Assembly (NCBI RefSeq): GCF_000020025.1
Contig: NC_010628.1
Span: forward strand, 8,190,001 to 8,222,000
DNA: 32,000 bases
DNA from: Nostoc punctiforme PCC 73102
GTDB taxonomy: Bacteria > Cyanobacteriota > Cyanobacteriia > Cyanobacteriales > Nostocaceae
Reading direction: 5' to 3'
Shown: positions 1 through 32,000 of the stretch, one piece after another
How the letters are laid out: each line of letters opens with the position of its first letter
How positions within the stretch are numbered: position 1 is the stretch's first letter
Made by a program: the position numbers and the translations under genes
The notes under the pieces: model-generated
Databases searched by the model: none
The model's input: the letters and a program-made list of their open reading frames with translations, nothing else
What the model was told of the DNA's origin: nothing

Positions 1-239
1 GGCAATTCAATTTTATGGGACTCAAATTGAATAGTTTTTCCCATTTTGCGACTGGCGTAGTCGCCCCGGACATTTATACCACTGCTTTTGACTCGCCGAA
101 TTGGTTCAGAGGCACGGATTTGGGAAATTAATTGCCTAGCCTCTTGTGGTAAATTTACGCCGCGACACCAATCATTAAACTCTTGGTCGCTCAACATATT
201 GGCCCCCAAGCTTTTAAAGCCGCAACAAGCTCTTACCAC
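1..239 (-). CDS. tnsB: TnsB-like DDE transposase, first ~79 codons only (gene continues left of the window)
   Basis: Same sequence as the 5' end of the 883-aa ORF 701..3352. GTG at 239, in-frame ATG at 197 (equivalent to 743 in copy 2). Confidence 0.8.
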   Translation of the reverse strand, partial: MVRACCGFKSLGANMLSDQEFNDWCRGVNLPQEARQLISQIRASEPIRRVKSSGINVRGDYASRKMGKTIQFESHKIEL

Positions 240-307
240 AAATCTAGGCTTTCGCCAGTTAAACAGTCTTTTATTGATATAAATATTTATACTTACCAGT
301 TCAGATG

Positions 308-358
308 ACTGCGGCCACTTTATGGTTTAAAAACGGCCACAATATCCTTTAAGTGACA
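308..358. repeat. 51-bp terminal inverted repeat, tnsB-proximal end of copy 1
   Basis: Reverse complement of 582..632. Terminus reads 5'-TGTCACTTAAAGGATATTGTGGCCGTTTTTAAACCATAAAGTGGCCGCAGT from outside in. Confidence 0.8.
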
Positions 359-581
359 CAAATGGACTTACGACAGCTTGAATTTTTGGGGTTTTTAAGA
401 GACAAACTTGCTACTTCAGGTATTTGAGGGTGCATAATCCCTTAACTTTCGGCACGTTTATGCTTGATTTTTAGACTTTCGGCAACTTTTTGGTTTCAAA
501 GCCAAATTTTAAGGCTGCGATCGCCTACGGCGGGCGCTTGCGCCATCGCGGAACGTTAAATCAAGCCTTGGCGCTTATCCT
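359..581. other. 223-bp spacer between head-to-head copies 1 and 2, carrying transposon-end-like repeats and a HIP1 site
   Basis: Unique sequence between the two termini. Two direct repeats, CTTTCGGCACGTTTATGC (446..463) and CTTTCGGCAACTTTTTGG (476..493), resemble the CATAA-NN-TKGCCG boxes next to the tniQ ends of copies 2 and 3. GCGATCGC lies at ~516. Confidence 0.5.
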
Positions 582-632
582 TGTCACTTAAAGGATATTG
601 TGGCCGTTTTTAAACCATAAAGTGGCCGCAGT
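582..632. repeat. 51-bp terminal inverted repeat, tnsB-proximal end of copy 2
   Basis: TGTCACTTAAAGGATATTGTGGCCGTTTTTAAACCATAAAGTGGCCGCAGT. Two GTGGCCG boxes 21 bp apart are candidate TnsB binding sites. Confidence 0.8.
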
Positions 633-648
633 CATCTGAACTGGTAAG

Positions 649-662
649 TATAAATATTTATA
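649..662. promoter_or_regulatory. Perfect 14-bp AT palindrome TATAAATATTTATA between the end repeat and the tnsB start (candidate -10/operator)
   Basis: Palindrome read directly. Also present in copy 1 (278..291) and copy 3 (31623..31636). Function is only inferred from its position upstream of tnsB. Confidence 0.3.
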
Positions 663-700
663 TCAATAAAAGACTGTTTAACTGGCGAAAGCCTAGATTT

Positions 701-3352
701 GTGGTAAGAGCTTGTTGCGGCTTTAAAAGCTTGGGGGCCAATATGTTGAGCGACCAAGAGTTTAATGATTGGTGTCGCGGCGTAAATTTACCACAAGAGG
801 CTAGGCAATTAATTTCCCAAATCCGTGCCTCTGAACCAATTCGGCGAGTCAAAAGCAGTGGTATAAATGTCCGGGGCGACTACGCCAGTCGCAAAATGGG
901 AAAAACTATTCAATTTGAGTCCCATAAAATTGAATTGCCAGGTGTAGAGGAGTACGAAGAAGACGCAGATGTACTCGAATACTACGACCAAGCATATCAA
1001 ATTACTCTAGAATTCCCCTCAAGCAGTGGGGAAATAATCAAAGCTTCGCATATACCAGACTTTTTCGTAATTCGGAAGCGGAGTGCAGGTTTTGAAGAGT
1101 GGAAACCAGAATCAAGATTAGAAAAATTAGCAGCTAAACAATCACAACGTTATATGCGTTCAGAAGATGGGCAGTGGTTAAACCTGCCAGCAGTTGCTTA
1201 TGCAGAAAAATTAGGACTGTATTACCGAATTCGGTTAGATACAGAAATTGATTGGATTAAATACAGAAATCGACTATTTCTCAAAGCCTATACTACTGAA
1301 GATTACCAAATTGACCCAGAAATAGCTGAAAATTTGGTGAAGTTAATTAGCTTAAATCCGGGCATAAGTTATTGGGAAATGATTCATACTCAACAGAGCA
1401 ATCCTGATGACATAAATGCTTTAATAGCTACAAAAAAAATTTACATTAATTTGAGTGCCGCACCCTTAGCAGAGCCAGAAAAAGTACAGCTTTTCCGTGA
1501 CCAAGAAATCGCGGTAGCTTATGTACAAATGATAAAATCGCAACCGAATAATGGAACGATTCTGAATATTTTAGATGTTAAACCCAATCAACTGGAACCT
1601 AAAACTCATAATCAAGTAAAAATGTCTCCAAAAGCAATGGAGCGTTTTTTGAGAGCTAGTCCTGAAGACTTGGCAGAAGCTAACCGAAGATATGAAGTAA
1701 TTGAACCTTATCTTAATGACAGTTATAGAGATAAAGAAACTGTTCCACAACGTACTATTCGCAGATGGAAGGCTAAGTTTATAGCAGCACAAAAGGCGTA
1801 CAAATGTGGTTATATTGGGCTGCTAAATAACTCTAATGCTAGAGGCAATCGCTTACCCAGAATTTCTCAATCGTCTCAAGATTTCATTGACAAAATAATT
1901 GAAGAATATTATGAAACTTTTCAACAAAGAAGCAAACTAGCTGTTTATGGAATTCTAGCAAGAGAATGGGAGAAAGCAGGTCTAACAGATAAGCTGCCTA
2001 GCTACGCTACATTTTGTTCTAGAATTCAACATCGTTCTGGTTATAGGCAAACAAAAAAACGTAAGGGAAACAGAGCAGCTTATCAACAATCTTTATTGTA
2101 TTGGGAGTTGAAATTAACCACACCATGTCATGGCGACCGTCCATTTGAGATAGCACACATTGACCATACGCAACTGGATATTGAGTTAGTATGCTCCCGA
2201 ACAGGTTATCTTCTTGGTAGACCTTGGGCAACTCTGTTAATCGATGCTTACAGCCGACGTATTCTCGCAGTTTACCTAACTTTTGACGAGCCAAGCTACC
2301 GTAGTTGCATGATGGTATTAAGAATCTGCGTACAGCGATTTGAGAAATTACCAGAGACAATAGTTGTTGACGGTGGGACAGAATTTAGTAGTACATACTT
2401 TGAGACCTTGTTAGCGGCTTTTGAATGTACCAAAAAGCAGCGACCAGCTGCGAAAGCCAGATTTGGTTCAATTATTGAACGTATTTTTGGAACTACAAAT
2501 ACAGAGTTTTTTTATAATCTTAGAGGCAACACTCAAATTACTAAGAATGTCCGCCAAGTCACGAAATCAAATAATCCCAAAAATCAAGCTGTTTGGACAC
2601 TAGATCAACTCTACGAAAACTTTTGTTCATATTGTTACGAATTCTATGATTGCAGAGAACATCCAACATTAGGACAAAGCCCACGTCAAACTTTTATGTC
2701 AGGGCTAAATTCAAGTGGTTATCGCCCTCAGAAACAGATTATTTATGATGATAATTTTAAGATTTTTACCTTACCTTCTACACCTAAAGGAACTGCAAAA
2801 GTTCAACCAAGTAGAGGCGTGAAAATTAATTATCTCTACTATTGGTCAATTGATGATTCGTTCATAAGACCAGAAATTGAAGGAACTAATGTACCTATTC
2901 GTTACGACCCTTTTGATATGGGGACTGCTTATGCTTACGTTAAGGGACGTTGGATACGCTGTATTTCTGAACATTACAAATCCTTCCAAAATCGTTCCGA
3001 AAAAGAAGTGAACATAGCCAGCACACAATTACGTCGAAAAAGGCAGAAACACGCTCAAAGAATTACTCTATCTGCCCAAGAAAAAGCTACATATTTAGAA
3101 GGAACTGAAGCCCAAGAAACTTTGTTATTACAACGCTTACATGATTTAGCACAACAAGATATTTGGGTTTTAATTGAAAAAAGCTCAGTTATTGAAAGTA
3201 AATTAAGTAAACACAATTATTCAGCTAATGTTCAAGATGTAGATAAAAATATTTTGGCAGGTTCAGAAAGCATTAAAAAGCCAAAATCATCAGCAAAAAA
3301 ATTAATAGATTTAACCAAAATAGAAGCTTACAATACAGAGGAGCTATGGTAA
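701..3352 (+). CDS. tnsB: TnsB-like DDE (rve/Mu-type) transposase, 883 aa
   Basis: Candidate DDE triad in HIDHTQLD, VVDGGTEF and IERIFGTTNTEFF. Size and position match TnsB/TniA. The track start is GTG at 701, and ATG at 743 (MLSDQEF...) preceded by GGGGG is a plausible true start. The stop overlaps the tnsC start (ATGGTAA). Confidence 0.9.
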   Translation: MVRACCGFKSLGANMLSDQEFNDWCRGVNLPQEARQLISQIRASEPIRRVKSSGINVRGDYASRKMGKTIQFESHKIELPGVEEYEEDADVLEYYDQAYQITLEFPSSSGEIIKASHIPDFFVIRKRSAGFEEWKPESRLEKLAAKQSQRYMRSEDGQWLNLPAVAYAEKLGLYYRIRLDTEIDWIKYRNRLFLKAYTTEDYQIDPEIAENLVKLISLNPGISYWEMIHTQQSNPDDINALIATKKIYINLSAAPLAEPEKVQLFRDQEIAVAYVQMIKSQPNNGTILNILDVKPNQLEPKTHNQVKMSPKAMERFLRASPEDLAEANRRYEVIEPYLNDSYRDKETVPQRTIRRWKAKFIAAQKAYKCGYIGLLNNSNARGNRLPRISQSSQDFIDKIIEEYYETFQQRSKLAVYGILAREWEKAGLTDKLPSYATFCSRIQHRSGYRQTKKRKGNRAAYQQSLLYWELKLTTPCHGDRPFEIAHIDHTQLDIELVCSRTGYLLGRPWATLLIDAYSRRILAVYLTFDEPSYRSCMMVLRICVQRFEKLPETIVVDGGTEFSSTYFETLLAAFECTKKQRPAAKARFGSIIERIFGTTNTEFFYNLRGNTQITKNVRQVTKSNNPKNQAVWTLDQLYENFCSYCYEFYDCREHPTLGQSPRQTFMSGLNSSGYRPQKQIIYDDNFKIFTLPSTPKGTAKVQPSRGVKINYLYYWSIDDSFIRPEIEGTNVPIRYDPFDMGTAYAYVKGRWIRCISEHYKSFQNRSEKEVNIASTQLRRKRQKHAQRITLSAQEKATYLEGTEAQETLLLQRLHDLAQQDIWVLIEKSSVIESKLSKHNYSANVQDVDKNILAGSESIKKPKSSAKKLIDLTKIEAYNTEELW

Positions 3353-4485
3353 AAATTCAGTCGCACTCTTTTCCAGAAGAACTTCTCTTACAGCCGAACG
3401 AAATTAAAACTGATTATTTCAAAAGTATCACTATTCCACATCAAAGGCTCAAACAAGCCTTAGATACTTTATTAATTAATATTCTGGAGCCAGCTGACAC
3501 TTTAGTATTTTTAGTTTTTGGTGTGACTGGTGTAGGAAAAACAACCTTACGCTTGCGTCTGGAAAATCTGCTAAATTACGAATTTCTCCCCTCATTACGC
3601 CAAAATCCTGGTCAAATTGCTGTTGCTGGTATTGAAGCTATTCCAACAGAACAAGGAAAGTTTAGCTATAAAGATTATTACACTCGCGCCCTAGAATCCC
3701 TTCAGGAAGTTTTGATTGAATACAAAATTGATTATGAAATTCCTCACGGTGAGGTAAAGGATTTGGGGTTGCTAAATCGGGCTTACCGCCAAGATTCGCC
3801 CGCATTACGCCGAGCAATGGAAAAAGCATTTCGTTATCGTCAGGTAAAAGCTTTTACTGTAGACGAGGCACAGCATTTATTTATGATGGCAGGCGGACAC
3901 CAGATGTTACAGCAAATGAACTGGATTAAGTCTATTGCTAATCTTACTGGTACAGTACATATTTTATTTGGAACTTATGAACTGCTTAACTGTCCTACCT
4001 TGAATGGGCAAATAGGGCGGCGTAGCGAAGATATTCACCTGTTACCTTACCAAGCTGATAACCCAGAAGATATTGCTGAATTTATTAGAGTAATTAGAAC
4101 TTTTCAACGCCACATTCCGCTTGTACAAGAACCAAAATTAGAACAACACTATGAGTATCTTTTTTCTGGCTCAGTTGGTTGTGTGGGGCTATTGAAGAAT
4201 TGGTTAACTCGTTCTTTGAGAGTTGCCTATTCTGAAGAAGCTCGGACTCTTAATAGCAAACATCTTAAATTAGGTGCTTTTTCTGCATCTCGTATCAACA
4301 AAATTAAGGAAGAAGCACAACAGGGATTTAAACGCTTTCAAGAAGAATCCAGTTTTTTTGAGCGGCAATATTCAACAGAACATGGAATAAAAATGCCAGC
4401 CAAAAATTCCCTACTCAAAAAAGGTCGTGTTGGACAAAGAAAACCTAAAAGAGATGATGTAGGGGTAAATTCAGATGATGACTAA
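3346..4485 (+). CDS. tnsC: TnsC/TniB-like AAA+ ATPase, 379 aa
   Basis: Walker A GVTGVGKTT and Walker B FTVDEAQH. Second gene of the tnsB-tnsC-tniQ order, overlapping both neighbours. Confidence 0.85.
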   Translation: MVKIQSHSFPEELLLQPNEIKTDYFKSITIPHQRLKQALDTLLINILEPADTLVFLVFGVTGVGKTTLRLRLENLLNYEFLPSLRQNPGQIAVAGIEAIPTEQGKFSYKDYYTRALESLQEVLIEYKIDYEIPHGEVKDLGLLNRAYRQDSPALRRAMEKAFRYRQVKAFTVDEAQHLFMMAGGHQMLQQMNWIKSIANLTGTVHILFGTYELLNCPTLNGQIGRRSEDIHLLPYQADNPEDIAEFIRVIRTFQRHIPLVQEPKLEQHYEYLFSGSVGCVGLLKNWLTRSLRVAYSEEARTLNSKHLKLGAFSASRINKIKEEAQQGFKRFQEESSFFERQYSTEHGIKMPAKNSLLKKGRVGQRKPKRDDVGVNSDDD

Positions 4486-6061
4486 CATGGCGGTTAACGA
4501 TGAATTGTGGCTCAAAGACCCAGAATTTACTCCCAGTCCTAGCCGGTTGTTTCATCTGGAACCGATTGGACTTGGTACTTGTTATGTTGAAAGTCTGACT
4601 AGCTATGTTGCTCGTCTAGCCGCAGCTCATAGCGTATTGCCTGGAACTTTATTGGCTAGAGAGATAAAACCAATAGTTGGGCATAACCATACTACCAATC
4701 CCTTGAATTCTAAAAGTATCGTAAGTTTGTATGGACAAGCTTCTGTAAAAGCTTTAAACGGAACACAAATTGGAGCTAAACAACTGGTTTTTGCTCTAGA
4801 AATATTGACAAAACGTACTGACTTACAGTTTTTGACAATGCTACCTTGGGCAAAAGTCTTCCCAGTTTTGGGATTGCTCAAGCATTCTCATGCTTGGTGT
4901 CCTTATTGCTATCAAGACTGGTTAAATAATCAACAAGTCATTTATTCACCTCTGCTGTGGGCTTTGAAACCAGCTAACATTTGTCCCATCCATTATCGAT
5001 TTTTAGAATCAAAATGTCCTCACTGTGACCTTGAATTTTTACACCTGTGGCATAACTCACGACCTGGATTTTGTCTGAAATGTGGTGGTTGGTTGGGGAT
5101 GAACTATGAAGTATCTTTGCCAGATAAGAGATTGTTCGAGGAGATACCCAATTTACAGCAAGAGATTTGGATAGTTAAGACTTTAGGAGATTTAATTGCT
5201 CAAGCTCCTGAATTTCCTTGTCCACCTCCAAGAGAGACTATTAAAACAATCCTAGAAGCTTACGTCTATCAATATACTCAAGGTAATGTTTCCGCTTTTG
5301 GTCGTTGGCTTGGGTTATCGAGATATGAAATTCTACATTGGTATTCAGGTGTAGCCATCCCAAATTTAGATAAACTTTTGAAAATCTGCTACGCCTTATC
5401 AACTAATCTTGTCGATTTTCTTCAACTTAAAATACTACCTCTTACTCTTAAGCAGCTAGTTTCTCTACCTGCTCCTAAACAGAAAAAATTATCATCACAG
5501 TCTGCTTTAGTTACTTCAAATAGTAGTCCTAAGTGCGAACGAGTTATTCAGGCGATGCAACTAGCTCAAGAAGAAGAACCACCTCCTTCTTTAACTCAAT
5601 TAGCTGTTCGTTTAGGATTCAAAACTCCTAGTAGTTTAACTGCTTGCTCAAAATCTTTATCAGCATCTTTGGCTACTAGATATAGTGAATATCAACAGCA
5701 GCTAAGATTTTTACACATCAGAGACATACTTGAATTAGCTTTGTTTAGCGACGAGTATCCACCACCTTCTCTAAGAAAAATAGCTAAGAGAACTGGTATT
5801 GGTTTGGCTACTTTCTACCACTATTGCCCTATTGTGTGCCATGCTATTTCTTTACGCTATAAAGATTACCGCAAATTCGTCCATAAACTAGCTATTGAGC
5901 AAGGCTGTCGAGAAGTACGCCAACTCGCTTCAGTACTTCATGCACAAGGCATTACCCCTACTGCTAAAAATCTCAGAAAATTTATGCCTCATCCCTCTTT
6001 GCTGTGGCAGGCTGAGGTAATTGATGTTTTAAGGCAGATAAGACTGGATCTTTCACAGTAA
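4475..6061 (+). CDS. tniQ: Long TniQ/TnsD-like target-selection protein, 528 aa
   Basis: N-terminal TniQ-like segment (ESLTSYVARLAAAHSV). Cys/His clusters CPYC...CPIH...CPHC and CLKC suggest a zinc ribbon. The C-terminus holds duplicated HTH-like modules (PPPSLTQLAVRLG / PPPSLRKIAKRTG). Confidence 0.8.
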   Translation: MMTNMAVNDELWLKDPEFTPSPSRLFHLEPIGLGTCYVESLTSYVARLAAAHSVLPGTLLAREIKPIVGHNHTTNPLNSKSIVSLYGQASVKALNGTQIGAKQLVFALEILTKRTDLQFLTMLPWAKVFPVLGLLKHSHAWCPYCYQDWLNNQQVIYSPLLWALKPANICPIHYRFLESKCPHCDLEFLHLWHNSRPGFCLKCGGWLGMNYEVSLPDKRLFEEIPNLQQEIWIVKTLGDLIAQAPEFPCPPPRETIKTILEAYVYQYTQGNVSAFGRWLGLSRYEILHWYSGVAIPNLDKLLKICYALSTNLVDFLQLKILPLTLKQLVSLPAPKQKKLSSQSALVTSNSSPKCERVIQAMQLAQEEEPPPSLTQLAVRLGFKTPSSLTACSKSLSASLATRYSEYQQQLRFLHIRDILELALFSDEYPPPSLRKIAKRTGIGLATFYHYCPIVCHAISLRYKDYRKFVHKLAIEQGCREVRQLASVLHAQGITPTAKNLRKFMPHPSLLWQAEVIDVLRQIRLDLSQ

Positions 6062-6095
6062 ATCTTATTTATTCGCCTTTCTCTAAGGTTTTACT

Positions 6096-6146
6096 ACTGC
6101 GGCCACTTTATGCTTTAAAAACGGCCACAATATCCTTTAAGTGACA
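6096..6146. repeat. 51-bp terminal inverted repeat, tniQ-proximal end of copy 2
   Basis: Reverse complement matches 582..632 except one C/G difference at position 34. Ends ...AAGTGACA at 6146. Confidence 0.8.
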
Positions 6147-6196
6147 ATTTGAAACCATAAACGTGCCACCCCGGCAAACTTATGCTTACAGTCACA
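6147..6196. repeat. Relic transposon-end-like segment ending ...CAGTCACA
   Basis: Contains CCATAAACGTGCC (6155..6167) and GGCAAACTTATGC (6173..6185). The outer 25 nt match the equivalent segment beside copy 3 (26083..26107) at 21/25. Not part of the identical copies. Confidence 0.45.
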
Positions 6197-6201
6197 TTTA
6201 G

Positions 6202-6222
6202 AGACGTTGCATTGCAACGTCT
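6202..6222. repeat. Hairpin dispersed repeat AGACGTTGCA-T-TGCAACGTCT (possible terminator)
   Basis: 10-bp arms read directly. Same AGAGACG...CGTCT family as 6251..6271 and 11726..11749. Confidence 0.4.
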
Positions 6223-6250
6223 GTTCATTTTCACCAGATGTATATTGTAA

Positions 6251-6271
6251 AGACGGCGATTTATCGCGTCT
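6251..6271 (-). terminator. Hairpin 11 nt downstream of the DUF1611 gene stop (possible terminator or dispersed repeat)
   Basis: Minus strand reads AGACGCGATAAATCGCCGTCT followed by TTTAC. The stem is imperfect and the U-run is weak. Confidence 0.35.
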
Positions 6272-6281
6272 CTCTAACCAT

Positions 6282-7328
6282 CTAATTCTTCATCACTGCA
6301 TCCAAAAGCACATTGGCATCAAAGCGGACTACATCGGTGCAAGGTAGCCCGGTTTCTGCTGTTATTTGAGCGATGCTTTCCTCAGCTGCAGATTCATCTA
6401 AATGTGCTGTGTTAAGCGCTATACCCACTACAGGCACACTTGCAAAAGCGCCACCTGCACTAGCAACGGTTTCATAAAGACGAATTACCTCTGGTAAAGG
6501 TGGAATTATTACATGGGGATGATTGCGGACATGAACTTGTCCCGCCCGATGGACTAACACCAGTTGAGTTGGTTGGGAACCACGAATCAGGGGTAGAGTT
6601 GCCGTTGAACCAGGGTGTAGCAGTGAACCTTGTCCTTCAATGTGCAAGATGTCATAGTTTTTGCCGTAGCGCATGACTACTTGTTCCACAGCACCAGCAG
6701 CAAAGTCTACCCGCACGGCATCTAAAGCCACACCATCACCTTCTAACATCACCCCAGTTTGACCTGTGGCGAGAAATTTAGAACGCCAGCCCCGCAGTTT
6801 TGATGCCCAATGTAACTGTAGGCTAGTTGACATTTTACCGATCGCCATATCGGTTCCCACTGTCAATACCCGCCGACACGGAAGCGTGCGGGCTATTCCA
6901 CTAGCAACACTTATATTAGGCGGCTCTTTGCGAACATCCCAAATTAGTTGCCCTGGTTTGAGCAGTGCATTTAAGTCCGGTATATTTGCCATTGGTGTAT
7001 GCAAACCATTCACCAAAGACATCCCAGCTTCTAGAGCGTCTTTGATTTCTAGCCAGTAATCATCTGGGATGGCACCACCACTTGGAGCAATGCCTATTAC
7101 CAAAACTTCTGGCTTGTACTGTAGGGCTGCGGCTACCGATGCCACAATTGGAACATCACGCTTGATACCTGTTAATTCTGTCAGAGATTTGCCAGCACAT
7201 TCGCGATCGATGACGGCTACAATTGGTGCTTCGCTGTAACGTAAAATTGCGAGTCCTGTTTTGCCGTGAGCCCCAGTAGTTCCCTCATGAAGTAAGATAG
7301 CTACTCGTTGATTAAGTGGTAGACGCAC
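6282..7328 (-). CDS. DUF1611-family protein (DgcN-like, putative N-acetyltransferase)
   Basis: 348-aa ORF with VGTDMAIGKMST, the GTDxxxGK signature I associate with DUF1611. Overlaps the upstream epimerase gene by 17 nt. Family call is from memory, not searched. Confidence 0.65.
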   Translation of the reverse strand: MRLPLNQRVAILLHEGTTGAHGKTGLAILRYSEAPIVAVIDRECAGKSLTELTGIKRDVPIVASVAAALQYKPEVLVIGIAPSGGAIPDDYWLEIKDALEAGMSLVNGLHTPMANIPDLNALLKPGQLIWDVRKEPPNISVASGIARTLPCRRVLTVGTDMAIGKMSTSLQLHWASKLRGWRSKFLATGQTGVMLEGDGVALDAVRVDFAAGAVEQVVMRYGKNYDILHIEGQGSLLHPGSTATLPLIRGSQPTQLVLVHRAGQVHVRNHPHVIIPPLPEVIRLYETVASAGGAFASVPVVGIALNTAHLDESAAEESIAQITAETGLPCTDVVRFDANVLLDAVMKN

Positions 7329-8364
7329 TGTGTTTTACCCCCAAACCTGGTAAATCGTTTAGCAAAACTCTACCTTCTTTTAGCAATGCACCCGTAAAGG
7401 GATCATCGATTAAGTTGAGGTGACTGTCTAAATCTAAATAATCAGCTAGTGGCGCTAGCTGTAATGCTGCTGTATTAGCTAGGGAACTATCAGAATAGCA
7501 ACCGAACATTACTTGCAACCGATATGCTCGCGCTGTATGTACCATTCGCATCGCTTCTGTTAGTCCCCCTGATTTCATCAGTTTGATATTAATACCATCC
7601 ACGTGATTTGCCAAATCGGGAATATCAGAGCTTGTGAAGCAACTTTCATCAATAAAGATGGGTAGGGGAGAGTGTTCTTTGAGTTTTGCTAAACTTTTTT
7701 CCTCGCCCCGTGGCAATGGCTGTTCTACATACTTTATACCCAATTCAGCTAGCCAATTGCACATTGCGATCGCATCTTCTAAACTCCAACCCCCGTTAGC
7801 ATCAACGAAAAACTCTGGTTCTGGTGCTTCTTCTCGCACCGCTAAGAGCATTTTTTTATCTGCATCTATGCCATCTGGACTACCTAACTTCACCTTGAAA
7901 AGGCGGACATCGGTAAATTGTAACCAGTCTCGCGCTCTGGCTCTAGCACCTTCAGGCGAATTGATCCCAATTGTGACTGAAGTTGGGACTATTTGATTGC
8001 GATCGAGTCCCCAAAGTTGCCATAAAGGTAATCCTACGCGCTTACCTAACCAGTCGTGCATTGCCATATCCAAGGCTGCTCTAGCAGCAGAAGGAACCTG
8101 GTTTTGTGTTAAAACTTGCTCAATTTGCTGTCGTTGTAAAGGGCTGAATGTTTGTAACAGTGGCACAACTTGCTCTAAAGCATTTTTGATTGTATCAGTT
8201 GATTGCCGATGATTACCCACACCAAACGGCGACGCTTCTCCCCAACCTTCGATCCCATCATGTGAAATCTTCACCCATACATTCGTTGTCTGTGCCGTTG
8301 TACCTCTACTAATGGTCAATGGAAATCTTTTATTTACCGTAAATAAATTTACATTTATTTGCAT
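7312..8364 (-). CDS. Enolase-superfamily dipeptide epimerase / N-acyl-amino-acid racemase-like enzyme
   Basis: KxK (FKVKLG), metal ligands in FVDANGGW, VEQPL and FIDES, and a second catalytic Lys in IKLMKSGG. Confidence 0.8.
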   Translation of the reverse strand: MQINVNLFTVNKRFPLTISRGTTAQTTNVWVKISHDGIEGWGEASPFGVGNHRQSTDTIKNALEQVVPLLQTFSPLQRQQIEQVLTQNQVPSAARAALDMAMHDWLGKRVGLPLWQLWGLDRNQIVPTSVTIGINSPEGARARARDWLQFTDVRLFKVKLGSPDGIDADKKMLLAVREEAPEPEFFVDANGGWSLEDAIAMCNWLAELGIKYVEQPLPRGEEKSLAKLKEHSPLPIFIDESCFTSSDIPDLANHVDGINIKLMKSGGLTEAMRMVHTARAYRLQVMFGCYSDSSLANTAALQLAPLADYLDLDSHLNLIDDPFTGALLKEGRVLLNDLPGLGVKHSASTT

Positions 8365-8502
8365 ACTAATTCTGCATATTATGTTATTGCAAAAGCAAGT
8401 GTAAGTTCAAAGTTTAGATTATCGGATGTATCTGTTATACTTTTTTACATTCATAGCTTAGTTACTAAAGTTTTTATACATAATTTTATTTTTACTTGAT
8501 TT

Positions 8503-9054
8503 ATGAGCAACTTAAAAAAATGGAAAACTTTAAAATCAAAAATGGTTTTAGATAACCCCTGGTGTCAGGTCAGATAAGATGAAATAGAATTGCCCAATGG
8601 GAAAATTATAGATGATTATTTTGTCAGTATTAAGCCTGATGTTGCGATGGTTTTACCTATCACTACTAATAGACAAATTATTTTTGTCCGCCAATATAGA
8701 CACGCAGTGGGTGAATTTTTCTTAGAACTACCAGCAGGAAATTTCGATCCTACAACAGAGAGTGCAGAAGTGGCAGCAATTAGAGAATTTACAGAAGAAA
8801 CTGGTTATATATCCCAAGAATTTAGAAAAATCGGAACTTTATACGATAAGCCGAGTAAAGATACTAATCAAATACATTTATTTCTAGCAGAGAATGTTAG
8901 CAAAATTGGAGAGCAACAACTGGATATTACCGAAGAGATTGAAGTTGTATTTATCCCTGTAGAATCAGTTTTAGATAAAATTGCCCAAGGTGAAATTTCT
9001 GTTGCAGGAACCGTTGCGGCTCTTTTTTTAGGTTTGAAACTTCTCACTTATTAA
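8503..9054 (+). pseudogene. NUDIX hydrolase (ADP-ribose pyrophosphatase-like) interrupted by an in-frame TAA at 8575..8577
   Basis: Nudix box AGNFDPTTESAEVAAIREFTEETGY. The track ORF starts at TTG 8590. The same frame upstream reads MSNLKKWKTLKSKMVLDNPWCQVR*DEIELPNGK, a typical ADPRase N-terminus starting at ATG 8503. Confidence 0.65.
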
Positions 9055-9071
9055 TAATCCAAGGGTTAATT

Positions 9072-10310
9072 ATGTTTGTTTTTATAGTAACTTATGATAA
9101 TTTCCTCAAACTTCGTCCAAGTAAGTTAGCGGAACTAGCTGAAGATGAAAAAATTCTGATTCCAGTCAAAAGGGTCTTACAGATTATTTCTTATACTGAA
9201 GAGAAAGAATATTACAGAATTATCTTGAAAAACTCTATCAATGGCAAAGATACATGGTTTGTCCGTAAGGAGCATATTGAGATATCTGATTATCTAACTT
9301 ATTATTATGAGAATGCTTATATCGGCTCTACTGTTGCAGTTAATAATATCGAGTCTTATGCTAATTTTCGTTCTTCGGATTTTGGCGGTATCGAGGTTGA
9401 AGAAGAAGTTATTAAACAGTTAAAAGTGCAGCTACAAGAAACTCCAACTATTCAAGAACGATCTTTACAACCTGCCGATATAACTAAAGATTTGGTCGAT
9501 TGTAGTGTGTTCAGTCCTGCTTCTGTAACTCCAAACGATATGTTTCTCGTCCAAGTCTTTGTTCATCTTCCTGAACAAGTTGAATCTGCCAAACAGAATG
9601 CTCAACAATTTGATCCTGAAGCTAAACAGTTAGGTGTGAGAAGTTTAGGAGTACCTATTAAACGGGGAAGTGAACTCACTTTTAACTTGTCAATTCCAAA
9701 ACTAGAAGTGGACGATCCGATTCAAAATTTGAGTTGGAATGGTAGAGCAGATTCTATTCAATTTGGAGTAACGGTTCCTGCTGATATAACTCAGAAAACA
9801 GTCATTGGAATTGTTACTGCCAGCCAAAACACAATTCCTCTCGGTCATCTAAAATTCAAATTATCGATTATTCCGTCTGCGTCTTCTACATCAAAAGAGC
9901 CTCAATTAGTAGGAGAAGTTGCTCGACATTATACAAAAGCATTCGTCTCTTATTCTTCTAAAGATCGGACAGAAGTTCTTAAAAGGGTACAGGGACTTGC
10001 TGTAAGTGGCATTACAGTTTTTCAAGATATCCTTAATTTAGAACCTGGCGATCGCTGGGAGCAAGAACTTTATCGCAACATTGATGAGTGCGATCTCTTC
10101 TTACTATTTTGGTCTACTGCTGCGAAAGAATCGCCGTGGGTGCTTAAAGAAGTCTTGTATGCTCTTGAGCGACAAGGATCTGATGGATTACGTTCCCCCG
10201 AAATTATTCCTGTAATCATAGAAGGCCCACCACTTGTTCCTCCACCTCCTGAATTGCAGGATCTCCATTTTAATGACAAACTTCTTTACTTAATGGCGAC
10301 ATCTAAATAG
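9072..10310 (+). CDS. Protein with unknown N-terminal/middle domains and a C-terminal TIR domain (412 aa)
   Basis: TIR signature from ~aa 289 (9936..10310): KAFVSYSSKD...CDLFLLFWSTAAKESPWVLKEVLYA, with a conserved Glu codon at 10149..10151. Starts 17 nt after the NUDIX stop. Confidence 0.8.
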   Translation: MFVFIVTYDNFLKLRPSKLAELAEDEKILIPVKRVLQIISYTEEKEYYRIILKNSINGKDTWFVRKEHIEISDYLTYYYENAYIGSTVAVNNIESYANFRSSDFGGIEVEEEVIKQLKVQLQETPTIQERSLQPADITKDLVDCSVFSPASVTPNDMFLVQVFVHLPEQVESAKQNAQQFDPEAKQLGVRSLGVPIKRGSELTFNLSIPKLEVDDPIQNLSWNGRADSIQFGVTVPADITQKTVIGIVTASQNTIPLGHLKFKLSIIPSASSTSKEPQLVGEVARHYTKAFVSYSSKDRTEVLKRVQGLAVSGITVFQDILNLEPGDRWEQELYRNIDECDLFLLFWSTAAKESPWVLKEVLYALERQGSDGLRSPEIIPVIIEGPPLVPPPPELQDLHFNDKLLYLMATSK

Positions 10311-15313: not shown

Positions 15314-15322
15314 TGATGCAAG

Positions 15323-26082: not shown

Positions 26083-26137
26083 TGTGACTTTACCCATAAC
26101 TTTGCCGCTACTGGAACCATAACTTTGCCGTCAACAA
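26083..26137. repeat. Relic transposon-end-like segment starting TGTGACT with two CCATAACTTTGCCG boxes
   Basis: Boxes at 26094..26107 and 26117..26130 (23-bp spacing). The outer 25 nt match the reverse complement of 6172..6196 at 21/25. Confidence 0.45.
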
Positions 26138-26188
26138 TGTCACTTAAAGGATATTGTGGCCGTTTTTAAAGCATAAAGTGGCCGCAGT
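26138..26188. repeat. 51-bp terminal inverted repeat, tniQ-proximal end of copy 3
   Basis: TGTCACTTAAAGGATATTGTGGCCGTTTTTAAAGCATAAAGTGGCCGCAGT, identical to the reverse complement of 6096..6146. Confidence 0.8.
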
Positions 26189-26222
26189 AGTAAAACCTTA
26201 GAGAAAGGCGAATAAATAAGAT

Positions 26223-27809
26223 TTACTGTGAAAGATCCAGTCTTATCTGCCTTAAAACATCAATTACCTCAGCCTGCCACAGCAAAGAGGGATGAGGCAT
26301 AAATTTTCTGAGATTTTTAGCAGTAGGGGTAATGCCTTGTGCATGAAGTACTGAAGCGAGTTGGCGTACTTCTCGACAGCCTTGCTCAATAGCTAGTTTA
26401 TGGACGAATTTGCGGTAATCTTTATAGCGTAAAGAAATAGCATGGCACACAATAGGGCAATAGTGGTAGAAAGTAGCCAAACCAATACCAGTTCTCTTAG
26501 CTATTTTTCTTAGAGAAGGTGGTGGATACTCGTCGCTAAACAAAGCTAATTCAAGTATGTCTCTGATGTGTAAAAATCTTAGCTGCTGTTGATATTCACT
26601 ATATCTAGTAGCCAAAGATGCTGATAAAGATTTTGAGCAAGCAGTTAAACTACTAGGAGTTTTGAATCCTAAACGAACAGCTAATTGAGTTAAAGAAGGA
26701 GGTGGTTCTTCTTCTTGAGCTAGTTGCATCGCCTGAATAACTCGTTCGCACTTAGGACTACTATTTGAAGTAACTAAAGCAGACTGTGATGATAATTTTT
26801 TCTGTTTAGGAGCAGGTAGAGAAACTAGCTGCTTAAGAGTAAGAGGTAGTATTTTAAGTTGAAGAAAATCGACAAGATTAGTTGATAAGGCGTAGCAGAT
26901 TTTCAAAAGTTTATCTAAATTTGGGATGGCTACACCTGAATACCAATGTAGAATTTCATATCTCGATAACCCAAGCCAACGACCAAAAGCGGAAACATTA
27001 CCTTGAGTATATTGATAGACGTAAGCTTCTAGGATTGTTTTAATAGTCTCTCTTGGAGGTGGACAAGGAAATTCAGGAGCTTGAGCAATTAAATCTCCTA
27101 AAGTCTTAACTATCCAAATCTCTTGCTGTAAATTGGGTATCTCCTCGAACAATCTCTTATCTGGCAAAGATACTTCATAGTTCATCCCCAACCAACCACC
27201 ACATTTCAGACAAAATCCAGGTCGTGAGTTATGCCACAGGTGTAAAAATTCAAGGTCACAGTGAGGACATTTTGATTCTAAAAATCGATAATGGATGGGA
27301 CAAATGTTAGCTGGTTTCAAAGCCCACAGCAGAGGTGAATAAATGACTTGTTGATTATTTAACCAGTCTTGATAGCAATAAGGACACCAAGCATGAGAAT
27401 GCTTGAGCAATCCCAAAACTGGGAAGACTTTTGCCCAAGGTAGCATTGTCAAAAACTGTAAGTCAGTACGTTTTGTCAATATTTCTAGAGCAAAAACCAG
27501 TTGTTTAGCTCCAATTTGTGTTCCGTTTAAAGCTTTTACAGAAGCTTGTCCATACAAACTTACGATACTTTTAGAATTCAAGGGATTGGTAGTATGGTTA
27601 TGCCCAACTATTGGTTTTATCTCTCTAGCCAATAAAGTTCCAGGCAATACGCTATGAGCTGCGGCTAGACGAGCAACATAGCTAGTCAGACTTTCAACAT
27701 AACAAGTACCAAGTCCAATCGGTTCCAGATGAAACAACCGGCTAGGACTGGGAGTAAATTCTGGGTCTTTGAGCCACAATTCATCGTTAACCGCCATGTT
27801 AGTCATCAT
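26223..27809 (-). CDS. tniQ: Long TniQ/TnsD-like target-selection protein, 528 aa (identical to copy 2)
   Basis: Translation identical to ORF 4475..6061. Confidence 0.8.
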   Translation of the reverse strand: MMTNMAVNDELWLKDPEFTPSPSRLFHLEPIGLGTCYVESLTSYVARLAAAHSVLPGTLLAREIKPIVGHNHTTNPLNSKSIVSLYGQASVKALNGTQIGAKQLVFALEILTKRTDLQFLTMLPWAKVFPVLGLLKHSHAWCPYCYQDWLNNQQVIYSPLLWALKPANICPIHYRFLESKCPHCDLEFLHLWHNSRPGFCLKCGGWLGMNYEVSLPDKRLFEEIPNLQQEIWIVKTLGDLIAQAPEFPCPPPRETIKTILEAYVYQYTQGNVSAFGRWLGLSRYEILHWYSGVAIPNLDKLLKICYALSTNLVDFLQLKILPLTLKQLVSLPAPKQKKLSSQSALVTSNSSPKCERVIQAMQLAQEEEPPPSLTQLAVRLGFKTPSSLTACSKSLSASLATRYSEYQQQLRFLHIRDILELALFSDEYPPPSLRKIAKRTGIGLATFYHYCPIVCHAISLRYKDYRKFVHKLAIEQGCREVRQLASVLHAQGITPTAKNLRKFMPHPSLLWQAEVIDVLRQIRLDLSQ

Positions 27810-28938
27810 CTGAATTTACCCCTACATCATCTCTTTTAGGTTTTCTTTGTCCAACACGACCTTTTTTGAGTAGGGAATTTTTGGCTGGCATTTTTATTCC
27901 ATGTTCTGTTGAATATTGCCGCTCAAAAAAACTGGATTCTTCTTGAAAGCGTTTAAATCCCTGTTGTGCTTCTTCCTTAATTTTGTTGATACGAGATGCA
28001 GAAAAAGCACCTAATTTAAGATGTTTGCTATTAAGAGTCCGAGCTTCTTCAGAATAGGCAACTCTCAAAGAACGAGTTAACCAATTCTTCAATAGCCCCA
28101 CACAACCAACTGAGCCAGAAAAAAGATACTCATAGTGTTGTTCTAATTTTGGTTCTTGTACAAGCGGAATGTGGCGTTGAAAAGTTCTAATTACTCTAAT
28201 AAATTCAGCAATATCTTCTGGGTTATCAGCTTGGTAAGGTAACAGGTGAATATCTTCGCTACGCCGCCCTATTTGCCCATTCAAGGTAGGACAGTTAAGC
28301 AGTTCATAAGTTCCAAATAAAATATGTACTGTACCAGTAAGATTAGCAATAGACTTAATCCAGTTCATTTGCTGTAACATCTGGTGTCCGCCTGCCATCA
28401 TAAATAAATGCTGTGCCTCGTCTACAGTAAAAGCTTTTACCTGACGATAACGAAATGCTTTTTCCATTGCTCGGCGTAATGCGGGCGAATCTTGGCGGTA
28501 AGCCCGATTTAGCAACCCCAAATCCTTTACCTCACCGTGAGGAATTTCATAATCAATTTTGTATTCAATCAAAACTTCCTGAAGGGATTCTAGGGCGCGA
28601 GTGTAATAATCTTTATAGCTAAACTTTCCTTGTTCTGTTGGAATAGCTTCAATACCAGCAACAGCAATTTGACCAGGATTTTGGCGTAATGAGGGGAGAA
28701 ATTCGTAATTTAGCAGATTTTCCAGACGCAAGCGTAAGGTTGTTTTTCCTACACCAGTCACACCAAAAACTAAAAATACTAAAGTGTCAGCTGGCTCCAG
28801 AATATTAATTAATAAAGTATCTAAGGCTTGTTTGAGCCTTTGATGTGGAATAGTGATACTTTTGAAATAATCAGTTTTAATTTCGTTCGGCTGTAAGAGA
28901 AGTTCTTCTGGAAAAGAGTGCGACTGAATTTTTACCAT
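27799..28938 (-). CDS. tnsC: TnsC/TniB-like AAA+ ATPase, 379 aa (identical to copy 2)
   Basis: Translation identical to ORF 3346..4485. Confidence 0.85.
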   Translation of the reverse strand: MVKIQSHSFPEELLLQPNEIKTDYFKSITIPHQRLKQALDTLLINILEPADTLVFLVFGVTGVGKTTLRLRLENLLNYEFLPSLRQNPGQIAVAGIEAIPTEQGKFSYKDYYTRALESLQEVLIEYKIDYEIPHGEVKDLGLLNRAYRQDSPALRRAMEKAFRYRQVKAFTVDEAQHLFMMAGGHQMLQQMNWIKSIANLTGTVHILFGTYELLNCPTLNGQIGRRSEDIHLLPYQADNPEDIAEFIRVIRTFQRHIPLVQEPKLEQHYEYLFSGSVGCVGLLKNWLTRSLRVAYSEEARTLNSKHLKLGAFSASRINKIKEEAQQGFKRFQEESSFFERQYSTEHGIKMPAKNSLLKKGRVGQRKPKRDDVGVNSDDD

Positions 28939-29106
28939 AGCTCCTCTGTATTGTAAGCTTCTATTTTGGTTAAATCTATTAATTTTTTTGCTGATGATTT
29001 TGGCTTTTTAATGCTTTCTGAACCTGCCAAAATATTTTTATCTACATCTTGAACATTAGCTGAATAATTGTGTTTACTTAATTTACTTTCAATAACTGAG
29101 CTTTTT

Positions 29107-31584
29107 TCAATTAAAAGCCCAAATATCTTGTTGTGCTAAATCATGTAAGCGTTGTAATAACAAAGTTTCTTGGGCTTCAGTTCCTTCTAAATATGTAGCT
29201 TTTTCTTGGGCAGATAGAGTAATTCTTTGAGCGTGTTTCTGCCTTTTTCGACGTAATTGTGTGCTGGCTATGTTCACTTCTTTTTCGGAACGATTTTGGA
29301 AGGATTTGTAATGTTCAGAAATACAGCGTATCCAACGTCCCTTAACGTAAGCATAAGCAGTCCCCATATCAAAAGGGTCGTAACGAATAGGTACATTAGT
29401 TCCTTCAATTTCTGGTCTTATGAACGAATCATCAATTGACCAATAGTAGAGATAATTAATTTTCACGCCTCTACTTGGTTGAACTTTTGCAGTTCCTTTA
29501 GGTGTAGAAGGTAAGGTAAAAATCTTAAAATTATCATCATAAATAATCTGTTTCTGAGGGCGATAACCACTTGAATTTAGCCCTGACATAAAAGTTTGAC
29601 GTGGGCTTTGTCCTAATGTTGGATGTTCTCTGCAATCATAGAATTCGTAACAATATGAACAAAAGTTTTCGTAGAGTTGATCTAGTGTCCAAACAGCTTG
29701 ATTTTTGGGATTATTTGATTTCGTGACTTGGCGGACATTCTTAGTAATTTGAGTGTTGCCTCTAAGATTATAAAAAAACTCTGTATTTGTAGTTCCAAAA
29801 ATACGTTCAATAATTGAACCAAATCTGGCTTTCGCAGCTGGTCGCTGCTTTTTGGTACATTCAAAAGCCGCTAACAAGGTCTCAAAGTATGTACTACTAA
29901 ATTCTGTCCCACCGTCAACAACTATTGTCTCTGGTAATTTCTCAAATCGCTGTACGCAGATTCTTAATACCATCATGCAACTACGGTAGCTTGGCTCGTC
30001 AAAAGTTAGGTAAACTGCGAGAATACGTCGGCTGTAAGCATCGATTAACAGAGTTGCCCAAGGTCTACCAAGAAGATAACCTGTTCGGGAGCATACTAAC
30101 TCAATATCCAGTTGCGTATGGTCAATGTGTGCTATCTCAAATGGACGGTCGCCATGACATGGTGTGGTTAATTTCAACTCCCAATACAATAAAGATTGTT
30201 GATAAGCTGCTCTGTTTCCCTTACGTTTTTTTGTTTGCCTATAACCAGAACGATGTTGAATTCTAGAACAAAATGTAGCGTAGCTAGGCAGCTTATCTGT
30301 TAGACCTGCTTTCTCCCATTCTCTTGCTAGAATTCCATAAACAGCTAGTTTGCTTCTTTGTTGAAAAGTTTCATAATATTCTTCAATTATTTTGTCAATG
30401 AAATCTTGAGACGATTGAGAAATTCTGGGTAAGCGATTGCCTCTAGCATTAGAGTTATTTAGCAGCCCAATATAACCACATTTGTACGCCTTTTGTGCTG
30501 CTATAAACTTAGCCTTCCATCTGCGAATAGTACGTTGTGGAACAGTTTCTTTATCTCTATAACTGTCATTAAGATAAGGTTCAATTACTTCATATCTTCG
30601 GTTAGCTTCTGCCAAGTCTTCAGGACTAGCTCTCAAAAAACGCTCCATTGCTTTTGGAGACATTTTTACTTGATTATGAGTTTTAGGTTCCAGTTGATTG
30701 GGTTTAACATCTAAAATATTCAGAATCGTTCCATTATTCGGTTGCGATTTTATCATTTGTACATAAGCTACCGCGATTTCTTGGTCACGGAAAAGCTGTA
30801 CTTTTTCTGGCTCTGCTAAGGGTGCGGCACTCAAATTAATGTAAATTTTTTTTGTAGCTATTAAAGCATTTATGTCATCAGGATTGCTCTGTTGAGTATG
30901 AATCATTTCCCAATAACTTATGCCCGGATTTAAGCTAATTAACTTCACCAAATTTTCAGCTATTTCTGGGTCAATTTGGTAATCTTCAGTAGTATAGGCT
31001 TTGAGAAATAGTCGATTTCTGTATTTAATCCAATCAATTTCTGTATCTAACCGAATTCGGTAATACAGTCCTAATTTTTCTGCATAAGCAACTGCTGGCA
31101 GGTTTAACCACTGCCCATCTTCTGAACGCATATAACGTTGTGATTGTTTAGCTGCTAATTTTTCTAATCTTGATTCTGGTTTCCACTCTTCAAAACCTGC
31201 ACTCCGCTTCCGAATTACGAAAAAGTCTGGTATATGCGAAGCTTTGATTATTTCCCCACTGCTTGAGGGGAATTCTAGAGTAATTTGATATGCTTGGTCG
31301 TAGTATTCGAGTACATCTGCGTCTTCTTCGTACTCCTCTACACCTGGCAATTCAATTTTATGGGACTCAAATTGAATAGTTTTTCCCATTTTGCGACTGG
31401 CGTAGTCGCCCCGGACATTTATACCACTGCTTTTGACTCGCCGAATTGGTTCAGAGGCACGGATTTGGGAAATTAATTGCCTAGCCTCTTGTGGTAAATT
31501 TACGCCGCGACACCAATCATTAAACTCTTGGTCGCTCAACATATTGGCCCCCAAGCTTTTAAAGCCGCAACAAGCTCTTACCAC
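29107..31584 (-). CDS. tnsB: TnsB-like transposase truncated by a +1 frameshift (825 aa; the full-length equivalent would span 28932..31584)
   Basis: The first 822 aa are identical to copy 2. Copy 2 reads GATATTTGGGTTTTAATTG, and copy 3 reads GATATTTGGGCTTTTAATTG (extra base at 29117), giving ...DIWAFN* in place of the last 61 aa. Confidence 0.85.
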   Translation of the reverse strand: MVRACCGFKSLGANMLSDQEFNDWCRGVNLPQEARQLISQIRASEPIRRVKSSGINVRGDYASRKMGKTIQFESHKIELPGVEEYEEDADVLEYYDQAYQITLEFPSSSGEIIKASHIPDFFVIRKRSAGFEEWKPESRLEKLAAKQSQRYMRSEDGQWLNLPAVAYAEKLGLYYRIRLDTEIDWIKYRNRLFLKAYTTEDYQIDPEIAENLVKLISLNPGISYWEMIHTQQSNPDDINALIATKKIYINLSAAPLAEPEKVQLFRDQEIAVAYVQMIKSQPNNGTILNILDVKPNQLEPKTHNQVKMSPKAMERFLRASPEDLAEANRRYEVIEPYLNDSYRDKETVPQRTIRRWKAKFIAAQKAYKCGYIGLLNNSNARGNRLPRISQSSQDFIDKIIEEYYETFQQRSKLAVYGILAREWEKAGLTDKLPSYATFCSRIQHRSGYRQTKKRKGNRAAYQQSLLYWELKLTTPCHGDRPFEIAHIDHTQLDIELVCSRTGYLLGRPWATLLIDAYSRRILAVYLTFDEPSYRSCMMVLRICVQRFEKLPETIVVDGGTEFSSTYFETLLAAFECTKKQRPAAKARFGSIIERIFGTTNTEFFYNLRGNTQITKNVRQVTKSNNPKNQAVWTLDQLYENFCSYCYEFYDCREHPTLGQSPRQTFMSGLNSSGYRPQKQIIYDDNFKIFTLPSTPKGTAKVQPSRGVKINYLYYWSIDDSFIRPEIEGTNVPIRYDPFDMGTAYAYVKGRWIRCISEHYKSFQNRSEKEVNIASTQLRRKRQKHAQRITLSAQEKATYLEGTEAQETLLLQRLHDLAQQDIWAFN

Positions 31585-31652
31585 AAATCTAGGCTTTCGC
31601 CAGTTAAACAGTCTTTTATTGATATAAATATTTATACTTACCAGTTCAGATG

Positions 31653-31703
31653 ACTGCGGCCACTTTATGGTTTAAAAACGGCCACAATATCCTTTAAGTG
31701 ACA
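31653..31703. repeat. 51-bp terminal inverted repeat, tnsB-proximal end of copy 3
   Basis: Identical to 308..358. Terminus ...AAGTGACA at 31703. Confidence 0.8.
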
Positions 31704-31734: not shown

Positions 31735-32000
31735 TGGGGGTGGAGGGACTTGAACCCACACGACCTATTACGGTCAACGGATTTTCATCCTCCCGCAGTT
31801 TTCACTGCTACCTGATGGCAATAGCCAAATCAGATTTTGAGAATTGGACTCTCCCTTTACCCTCGACTTTACGTTAGGGTAGCTCCCGTCGGGTCTCTGC
31901 ACCTTCCCTCAATTTTGGGTTTTGGATTTTAGATTGAAAACTAATCCCAAATCTAAAATCGCAAATCTAAAATTTTCGGGCTTGGCTCAGGATTGCCATG
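31735..32000 (-). tRNA. trnL: tRNA-Leu(UAA) interrupted by a group I intron. The 3' exon is 31735..31785; the rest of the intron and the 5' exon lie beyond the window
   Basis: Minus strand reads ...GGGAGGATG|AAAATCCGTTGACCGTAATAGGTCGTGTGGGTTCAAGTCCCTCCACCCCCA. This gives the AA of the UAA anticodon, a long variable arm (GACC/GGTC), a T-loop TTCAAGT and an acceptor 3' strand, with no encoded CCA. Confidence 0.85.
31786..32000 (-). ncRNA. Group I intron of tRNA-Leu(UAA), 3' ~215 nt (partial)
   Basis: Ends in omega-G before the 3' exon. Contains GGCAATCCTGAGCCAAGCC, GGGAGCTACCCTAACGT, GAGGGTAAAG.GAGAGTCCAATTCTCAAA and GCTGCGGGAG.ATG blocks that I recall from the Anabaena/Nostoc intron. Confidence 0.85.

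Follow-up and report, generated by a model that had tools for sequence, protein, structure and literature searches.

A 32,000-nucleotide (nt) window of Nostoc punctiforme PCC 73102 (NC_010628.1, 8,190,001-8,222,000), in whose own coordinates all positions below are given, holds three copies of one element, a Tn7-like transposon carrying tnsAB, tnsC and tniQ/tnsD genes; copy 1 is partial, and copies 2 and 3 are complete. Copies 1 and 2 face each other, and according to alignments with Nostoc plasmids the DNA between and beyond them (359-581 and 6147-6196) is made of pieces of a single Tn7-family miniature inverted-repeat transposable element (MITE) of about 291 bp. By the same alignments, the pentamer ATTTG is a genuine target-site duplication that is split between the transposase end of copy 1 and the tniQ end of copy 2. 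As the best explanation of the whole we propose, with slightly less than even confidence, that the transposon entered both ends of this MITE and that recombination between the two copies then flipped the DNA between them.

Two transposon copies in one host MITE

The original prediction, made from the letters of the window, had placed CAAAT at 359-363, ATCCT at 577-581 and ATTTG at 6147-6151, and had described a long palindrome around the facing transposase ends. These positions and bases were confirmed, and the arms 1-358 and 582-939 are indeed 100% complementary over 358 nt, with 223 nt between them. It had further read the shared 5 bp as a true split duplication and expected related Nostoc genomes to contain an empty site, in which the reverse complement of 359 onward is contiguous with 6147 onward. 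A megablast search of window 1-9000 against plasmids matched only 359-524, at 92-94% identity and in several Nostoc plasmids, and the matches start exactly at 359. These plasmid loci reveal a non-autonomous element of about 291 bp with TGTGAC...GTGACA termini and repeated binding sites of the Tn7 type. It has the features of a MITE, being short and free of open reading frames (ORFs), with termini of the family type, a 5-bp duplication of its own (TCAGC in locus L016, CTTTT around the copy in L051; L numbers denote comparison loci) and copies in at least three plasmids. Its left end contains binding-type sites in both orientations, as described for the left end in the TnsAB-fusion clade of Tn7-like transposons (PMC9881144). 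The MITE is intact in three Nostoc plasmids (L015-L017), where it reads ...GGCACGTTTATGGTTT-CAAAT-GGACTTACGAC...; this is the expected empty site, with one mismatch in L015 and the variants CAAAC and CAAGC in L016 and L017.

With the intact 291-bp copy of L016 (2956-3246) as blastn reference, MITE positions 1-49 map to window 6196-6148 (98%) and positions 46-194 to window 359-507 (94.6%), and therefore positions 46-50 are present twice. A MAFFT alignment of the reverse complement of 6152-6215, joined to 359-581, is collinear with the three intact MITEs through the junction ...GGTTT-CAAAT-GGACTTACG..., so that the two flanks are adjacent in intact MITEs and the reading as a split duplication stands. 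On its other side, copy 2 is flanked by ATCCT, which corresponds to positions 238-242 of the same MITE; the MITE is truncated at this point and lacks its final 49 bp there. As judged from these alignments, one MITE was struck twice, at site A, 45 bp from its left terminus, and at site B, 49 bp from its right terminus; site B presumably carries a 5-bp duplication as well. The left-end module beyond copy 2 has two transposase-binding-type sites in opposite orientation and ends with its terminus TGTGAC at 6196. On the minus strand the order is MITE-left(45)-CAAAT-(tniQ...tnsAB)-AGGAT-inverted interior-ATTTG-(tnsAB...tniQ), followed by the flank beyond the window edge, and the left flank of one copy equals the right flank of the other, as would be expected after intramolecular replicative inversion.

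Two side observations concern the MITE itself. Relative to the three plasmid copies, the host MITE has 25 extra bases (CCTACGGCGGGCGCTTGCGCCATCG) at 520-545, beside a GCGATCGC site. In L017 (Nostoc sp. C052 pC052_A, 2800-2850), a solitary 45-bp module of the left-end type (...AAACCATAAAGCGAGCAACTTGCTCATCTTATGCTTTCAGTGACA) lies about 100 bp upstream of the intact MITE and is possibly the remnant of an earlier deletion event.

The junctions were also sought in read sets. The junction that runs from a DUF1611 gene through the MITE left end and CAAAT into the element end recurs in short-read contigs of four separate runs, and the junction of copy 3 with the 50-bp module next to it recurs in at least eight read sets; because the same junctions appear in independent runs, they are not one-off assembly errors. 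The two possible orientations of the spacer are indistinguishable by short reads. An exact look-up of the TniQ protein returned only collapsed repeat contigs of about 5.5 kb, and the exact element-end pattern had no match in metagenomes. A fold-back (palindromic) assembly artefact was considered and rejected, as the spacer is non-palindromic unique sequence with exact termini on both sides.

Table 1. Positions of the transposon copies, the host MITE pieces and associated features in the window
Feature	Position	Strand	Remarks
Copy 1, tnsAB-end portion	1..358	-	Cut by window edge; matches the opening 358 bp of copies 2 and 3 at 100% identity
CAAAT, target-site duplication A, first copy (MITE positions 46-50)	359..363	.	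Sequence, MITE alignment
Host-MITE interior, MITE positions 51-237 plus 25 extra bases	364..576	+	94.6% to intact copies L015-L017
ATCCT, 5 bases of site B (MITE positions 238-242)	577..581	.	MAFFT alignment; elsewhere GTCCT or GCCCT
Copy 2, complete, 5565 bp	582..6146	+	tnsAB, tnsC, tniQ/tnsD; no cargo
tnsAB, DDE transposase with fused TnsA-like nuclease, 869 aa counted from first ATG	743..3352	+	PF08722, rve, Mu-transpos_C
tnsC, AAA+ ATPase	3346..4485	+	AAA_22, TniB; TnsC of 8fcu/9bw1, E=3e-90
tniQ, TnsD-type target selector, 528 aa	4475..6061	+	PF06527; TnsD of 8v32/9bw1, E=1e-79
ATTTG, second copy of target-site duplication A	6147..6151	.	Sequence, blastn
Host-MITE left-end module, 45 bp	6152..6196	-	98% to MITE positions 1-49; junction in four read sets
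Terminal module (50 bp, right-end type) of a different, related element	26083..26132	+	Abuts tniQ end of copy 3
Copy 3, 5566 bp	26138..31703	-	One extra base at ~29117
tRNA-Leu(UAA): 3' exon as read 31735-31822, group I intron 31823-32000	31735..32000	-	Rfam RF00028, E=4.5e-8; cut by window edge

The transposon and its copy beside a tRNA gene

By its gene content and ends, the element is a cargo-less Tn7-like transposon of the TnsAB-fusion clade, organised like Tn5469. It shows the traits of that clade, namely a fused nuclease-DDE protein, TnsC and TniQ/TnsD downstream of it, TGT...ACA termini and a 5-bp duplication, the last seen at MITE positions 46-50 here and as GCAAT in L054. The terminal inverted repeats of 51 bp lie at 582-632 and 6096-6146, with two CGGCCAC-type sites. 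The element carries no Cas genes and no CRISPR array; its 5565 bp are filled by the three ORFs, and Rfam at the gathering threshold is blank. None of its ORFs encodes a resolvase. The listed tnsAB ORF begins at GTG 701, and the 869-aa version is also the gene call in L002.

The original prediction had taken the element to be TnsA-less, and this premise fails. The tnsAB product matches PF08722, the TnsA-like nuclease, over residues 88-177 (29.9 bits against a cutoff of 26.5), and it is collinear over both domains with the 898-aa PDB chain 9bw1_M (E=2e-270), the FESH, PD and E-x-K residues being aligned. Having a TnsA domain, the element does not belong with the TnsA-less class (type V-K, Tn5053). 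The entries 9bw1, 8fcu and 8v32 appear, judging from their chain names and from the abstract of PMC12585508, to be the TnsABCD proteins of the Peltigera membranacea cyanobiont, that is, the core of the CRISPR-associated transposon (CAST) PmcCAST. The replicative consequence drawn from the premise is not automatically lost with it, since the TnsAB of PmcCAST reportedly forms cointegrates despite its nuclease domain.

Copy 3 differs from copy 2 by a single extra base (window 29117, corresponding to copy 2 position 3167). It frameshifts tnsAB and leaves an ORF of 825 aa instead of 883, with a loss of about 58 C-terminal residues. The C-terminal tail of Tn7-like transposases contacts TnsC. The extra base could mark a real defective copy or be a consensus error.

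The tnsAB end of copy 3 lies 31 bp downstream of the 3' exon of tRNA-Leu(UAA), an attachment downstream of a tRNA with the transposase-gene end proximal. The exon is our reading of the sequence; the RF00028 match to the intron, whose 5' side is cut by the window edge, comes from a permissive scan, and ARAGORN and Rfam at the gathering threshold found no tRNA and no intron in the window. An intron-containing tRNA-Leu is one known attachment site of the TnsAB-fusion clade (PMC9881144), and the TnsD of the element presumably directs insertion at tRNA-Leu.

The 45 bp beside the transposase end at site A (359-403) and at tRNA-Leu (31704-31748) share 23 of 45 anchored identities (shuffle p~0.0008), and both flanks carry AAAAATT(C/G)AA at an equal offset. 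In the same anchored comparison, site B and tRNA-Leu have 9 of 45 identities and nothing similar, and nothing was found between sites A and B. We did not adopt site A as a mimic of the tRNA-Leu attachment site; the resemblance of site A may reflect a partial mimic or chance.

Insertion just inside the ends of other elements

Beyond its tniQ end, copy 2 is followed by 5 bp and then by the 45-bp MITE end module, which faces outward. In copy 3 the tniQ end is likewise followed by 5 bp (26133-26137, AACAA) and then by a different 50-bp end module, and the flanks of this copy do not match each other. Relatives with the same arrangement have modules of 48 bp (L001) and 47 bp (L010). The idea that these outer modules of 45-50 bp are parts of the element itself was rejected: copies 2 and 3 are alike inside while their modules differ, and MITEs free of the element exist.

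Searches of metagenomes with a degenerate end pattern, together with a plasmid search with the ends, yielded non-autonomous elements (L025-L030, L051-L054); the six metagenome loci had no tblastn match to the three element proteins. A scripted scan of the first 20 distinct flanks found the family terminus motif ending 50-55 bp from the element end in eight, where 0.0012 per flank is expected. With L026 and L051-L054 included, a count by eye gives about 13-15 flanks out of 28 that abut an outward-facing terminal module, 45-50 bp long, of another Tn7-like element. Single positions are used again in other loci: L027 has junctions within 1 bp of site B and within 2 bp of site A, and L051 has one within 1 bp of site B. 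L054 offers a clean case of simple insertion, located 50 bp inward from the terminus of a Tn7-like element and flanked by a perfect duplication of GCAAT. In L051, the CTTTT duplication of the outer MITE is intact and MITE positions 6 to ~237 have been replaced, and in L027 a mini element adjoins the MITE sites A' and B', and the MITE interior has been lost. Because the precision of these positions goes beyond what selection for harmless sites would produce, we infer end-directed targeting; the data suggest that this family regularly enters related transposons at a point slightly internal to their ends.

Could the ends of other elements be served by a pathway of their own? We offer this tentatively, and with more doubt than belief: the transpososome would dock at the inner edge of a two-site, transposase-bound module of a resident Tn7-family element, the opposite of immunity, and in the native hosts copy-in would be frequent despite the TnsA domain, hops from module to module giving inversions (as in this window) and adjacent deletions (copy 3, L027, L030, L051). 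If the end-directed preference is true, it concerns a lineage close to PmcCAST, whose transposase has been engineered, and the attraction of TnsAB-TnsC to a defined DNA target with neither guide RNA nor TnsD would be a new mode of target selection. A literature search on end-directed targeting by Tn7-like elements, or on intramolecular inversion by them, returned nothing relevant, and as far as that search went, nesting inside the ends of other Tn7-family elements is undescribed for Tn7-like elements.

The non-autonomous derivatives (L027 1367-1558, L030 1864-2077, L051 401-612, L053 401-602, L054 401-620 and L025 4437-7003) are 192-243 bp long, with one of 2.6 kb. They have TGTCACTTAAAGGAT-type termini and come from metagenomes and from finished Nostoc, Aulosira and Gloeothece plasmids, and most of them lie between outward-facing end modules of other elements. 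A separate pattern was seen in the Nostoc metagenome-assembled genome of L011 (1-108, 5674-5818), where a 94% relative of the element lies between inverted, ~80%-similar copies of the tnsA-side end of another Tn7-like element, which have ATACTTATAACTTCGT in common. The same sequence follows a partial copy in Nostoc sp. C057 p057_G (L018 6300-6450), just upstream of a separate tnsA. This pattern may reflect tandem occupancy of an attachment site or another rearrangement, and the L011 contig may be chimeric.

Origin of the head-to-head pair

How did the pair and its swapped flanks arise? We propose that the cargo-less transposon inserted at both ends of one ~0.3-kb Tn7-family MITE, each time directly internal to the two-site transposase-binding module of the MITE and with its tniQ end towards the nearer MITE terminus. 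Since a MITE offers two mirror-oriented modules, such insertions would stand head to head, as seen, with the 223-bp MITE interior between them. RecA-type recombination between the 5.5-kb perfect inverted copies would then flip this interior relative to the outside, so that the MITE left-end fragment and ATTTG would now follow copy 2 and not copy 1. Such flip-flop is expected to be continuous, and the orientation in the assembly would consequently be uninformative on how the pair arose; whatever the origin, the assembled order probably represents one of two isomers that convert into each other. As to how the pair itself came about, two separate end-directed insertions have about an even chance in our estimate, and a single insertion with a later copy-in hop to the site next to it is somewhat less probable. 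As one alternative, the original prediction had the element attack a site 223 bp from its own end. The distance is correct; the target is not an arbitrary one, for the spacing follows from the two mirror-image preferred sites of the MITE. The two routes that it offered, replicative inversion and recombination of two inverted copies, are precisely those that account for the structure.

The proposal of two insertions and a flip is supported by the contiguity of the flanks in intact MITEs and the duplication of positions 46-50, by the conservation of the TnsA PD/ExK residues relative to 9bw1_M and by a site preference that is seen independently of this locus, in other elements with these ends. 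For recombination in particular speak the simple insertion with its duplication at the hot spot in L054 and the 100% identity of the inverted copies, which makes them ideal substrates. Several points weigh against the proposal. Target immunity of the Tn7-like kind should work against another insertion as near as 223 bp to a resident end. A reciprocal junction, in which a tniQ end is followed by ATCCT and the MITE right end, was not seen, and just 1-2 of the 10 complete elements that have these ends show matching 5-bp flanks, a lower number than one would expect with simple insertion and occasional recombination as the rule. Finally, PmcCAST, whose transposase is the closest characterised one, makes cointegrates (PMC9881144).

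Copy-in (replicative) intramolecular transposition is the strongest competitor, one that we consider quite possible and yet short of probable. Here a single insertion would be followed by an attack of its ends on the second hot spot, at a distance of 223 bp, in which the TnsA domain makes no 5' cut; replication would give two inverted copies and invert the interval in one step, leaving each copy with one old and one new flank, which is exactly the product observed. PmcCAST TnsAB is reported to form cointegrates at about the type V-K rate (PMC9881144), ~15.7% (bioRxiv 10.64898/2026.05.29.728539). Moreover, the flanks do not match in most of the complete elements that have these ends, L027 and L051 look like the sister outcome, an adjacent deletion, and copy 3 is bordered by the tRNA-Leu site on one side and by the end module of another element on the other; copy-in also takes one fewer event per case than recombination. 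However, the nuclease motif is intact, PmcCAST still produces mostly simple insertions, the related fusion of McCAST is strictly cut-and-paste (PMC9881144), and every product of this kind is also obtainable by recombination between two copies. Both routes yield an identical structure, and the observations made here agree with either.

A further explanation, which we regard as improbable, is that the long-range linkage is a choice of the assembly. In that case the unflipped isomer, in which both copies are simple insertions with duplications of their own, would be the real or prevailing structure, and the assembler would have connected the identical 5.5-kb repeats in the opposite way, or the culture would be mixed. 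The four short junctions would be the same in both isomers and only reads longer than 5.6 kb would decide between them; short-read contigs break exactly at the element ends, and the one-base difference of copy 3 may be a consensus error. Nevertheless, long reads are implied by a 32-kb stretch that runs across two complete copies of 5.6 kb and a partial one, all identical; the flanks of copy 3 do not match either, and the exclusion of a fold-back artefact applies here too. That the 5-bp identity is a coincidence of unrelated flanks, expected at about 1/1024 per comparison, has a negligible chance and is already refuted, since 45 bp on one side (98%) and 149+ bp on the other (94.6%) align to neighbouring positions in a single MITE family.

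Two insertions followed by a flip lead to a prediction for the DNA to the left of copy 1, where AGGAT and then the reverse complement of GCGGCAAGG...GTGACA are expected, so that the plus strand would read ...TGTCACTGTAACCATAAGTTTGCCGCTTTTGAAAGCATAACCTTGCCGC-AGGAT-(copy 1). Should copy 3 have arisen by deletion, its flanks can be explained without any additional copy, and AGGAT beside copy 1, as in the original prediction, becomes the most economical expectation. Five related Nostoc loci have the order DUF1611, variable DNA, a gene of 66 aa and mnmE, from which the missing MITE right end should lead to the 66-aa gene and mnmE.

Comparison with known systems

The closest known systems are the core of PmcCAST (Tn7744) and the tRNA-targeting TnsAB-fusion clade (Hsieh & Peters, PMC9881144; PMC12585508), which the element resembles in its fused TnsAB, its TnsC and its large TnsD-type TniQ (PDB matches of 2e-270, 3e-90 and 1e-79), in its 5-bp duplications and in having one copy by an intron-containing tRNA-Leu. 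It differs from PmcCAST in being without CRISPR-Cas, a second TniQ and cargo, and its TnsD match is much weaker than its transposase match; unlike the tRNA-targeting clade, most insertions seen here lie inside the ends of other elements and not at a tRNA. The TnsAB of McCAST works by cut-and-paste, with 0 of 150 products being cointegrates, compared to 149 of 150 in the D106A mutant (PMC9881144). The published PmcCAST and McCAST data thus disagree on cointegrates, a point that bears on their use in genome editing, and natural flank patterns such as those described here are field evidence on whether TnsA-TnsB fusions also give cointegrate-type products in the hosts they come from.

Tn5469 of Fremyella diplosiphon is, like our element, cargo-less, with TnsAB, TnsC and one TniQ (PMC9881144, PMC11406308). 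It has been described as lacking attachment-site targeting, and the literature covered here reports no end-directed preference for it. In the plasmid collection, the most similar TniQ, from Microchaete/Tolypothrix plasmids whose host suggests that these genes are Tn5469, is 35.6% identical to the TniQ of our element.

Other mobile elements also find their target on a mobile element. The insertion sequences (IS) IS4321 and IS5075 target the terminal repeats of Tn21-family transposons, with a transposase family that differs from that of the element here. In Tn7, the Tn7-type end module normally confers immunity, not attraction. The 'res hunters' of the Tn5053 family likewise choose a site on another mobile element, their TniQ targeting resolvase-bound res sites (cited in PMC11406308), with protein machinery that differs from ours. 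In contrast to both cases, the target here lies at the internal border of an end module of the Tn7 type.

A split duplication as a sign of inversion between transposon copies is textbook knowledge, and the locus alone would be ordinary. It resembles the classical inversions and adjacent deletions of Tn3, Mu and IS elements and the cointegrates of type V-K CASTs in its inverted copies with swapped flanks and in the deletion counterparts found in relatives. It differs from the classical inversions in that the element carries a TnsA domain and both junctions fall on specific preferred sites.

Other features of the window

The ORF at 15986-19675 (minus strand, 1229 aa) includes about 15 near-identical tandem repeats of 123 bp (41 codons) at 15978-17876. 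Shorter tandem arrays lie at 15290-15559, with a period of 30 bp and GCGATCGC in each unit, and at 15589-15840 and 21420-21566, both with a period of 21 bp. The region 8590-10310, with a NUDIX gene followed by a gene for a TIR_2-domain protein (412 aa), is a variable, defence-like islet: at the same position the TIR gene is missing in the Nostoc loci L044, L046 and L048, and a different TIR protein of 500 aa is encoded in L047.

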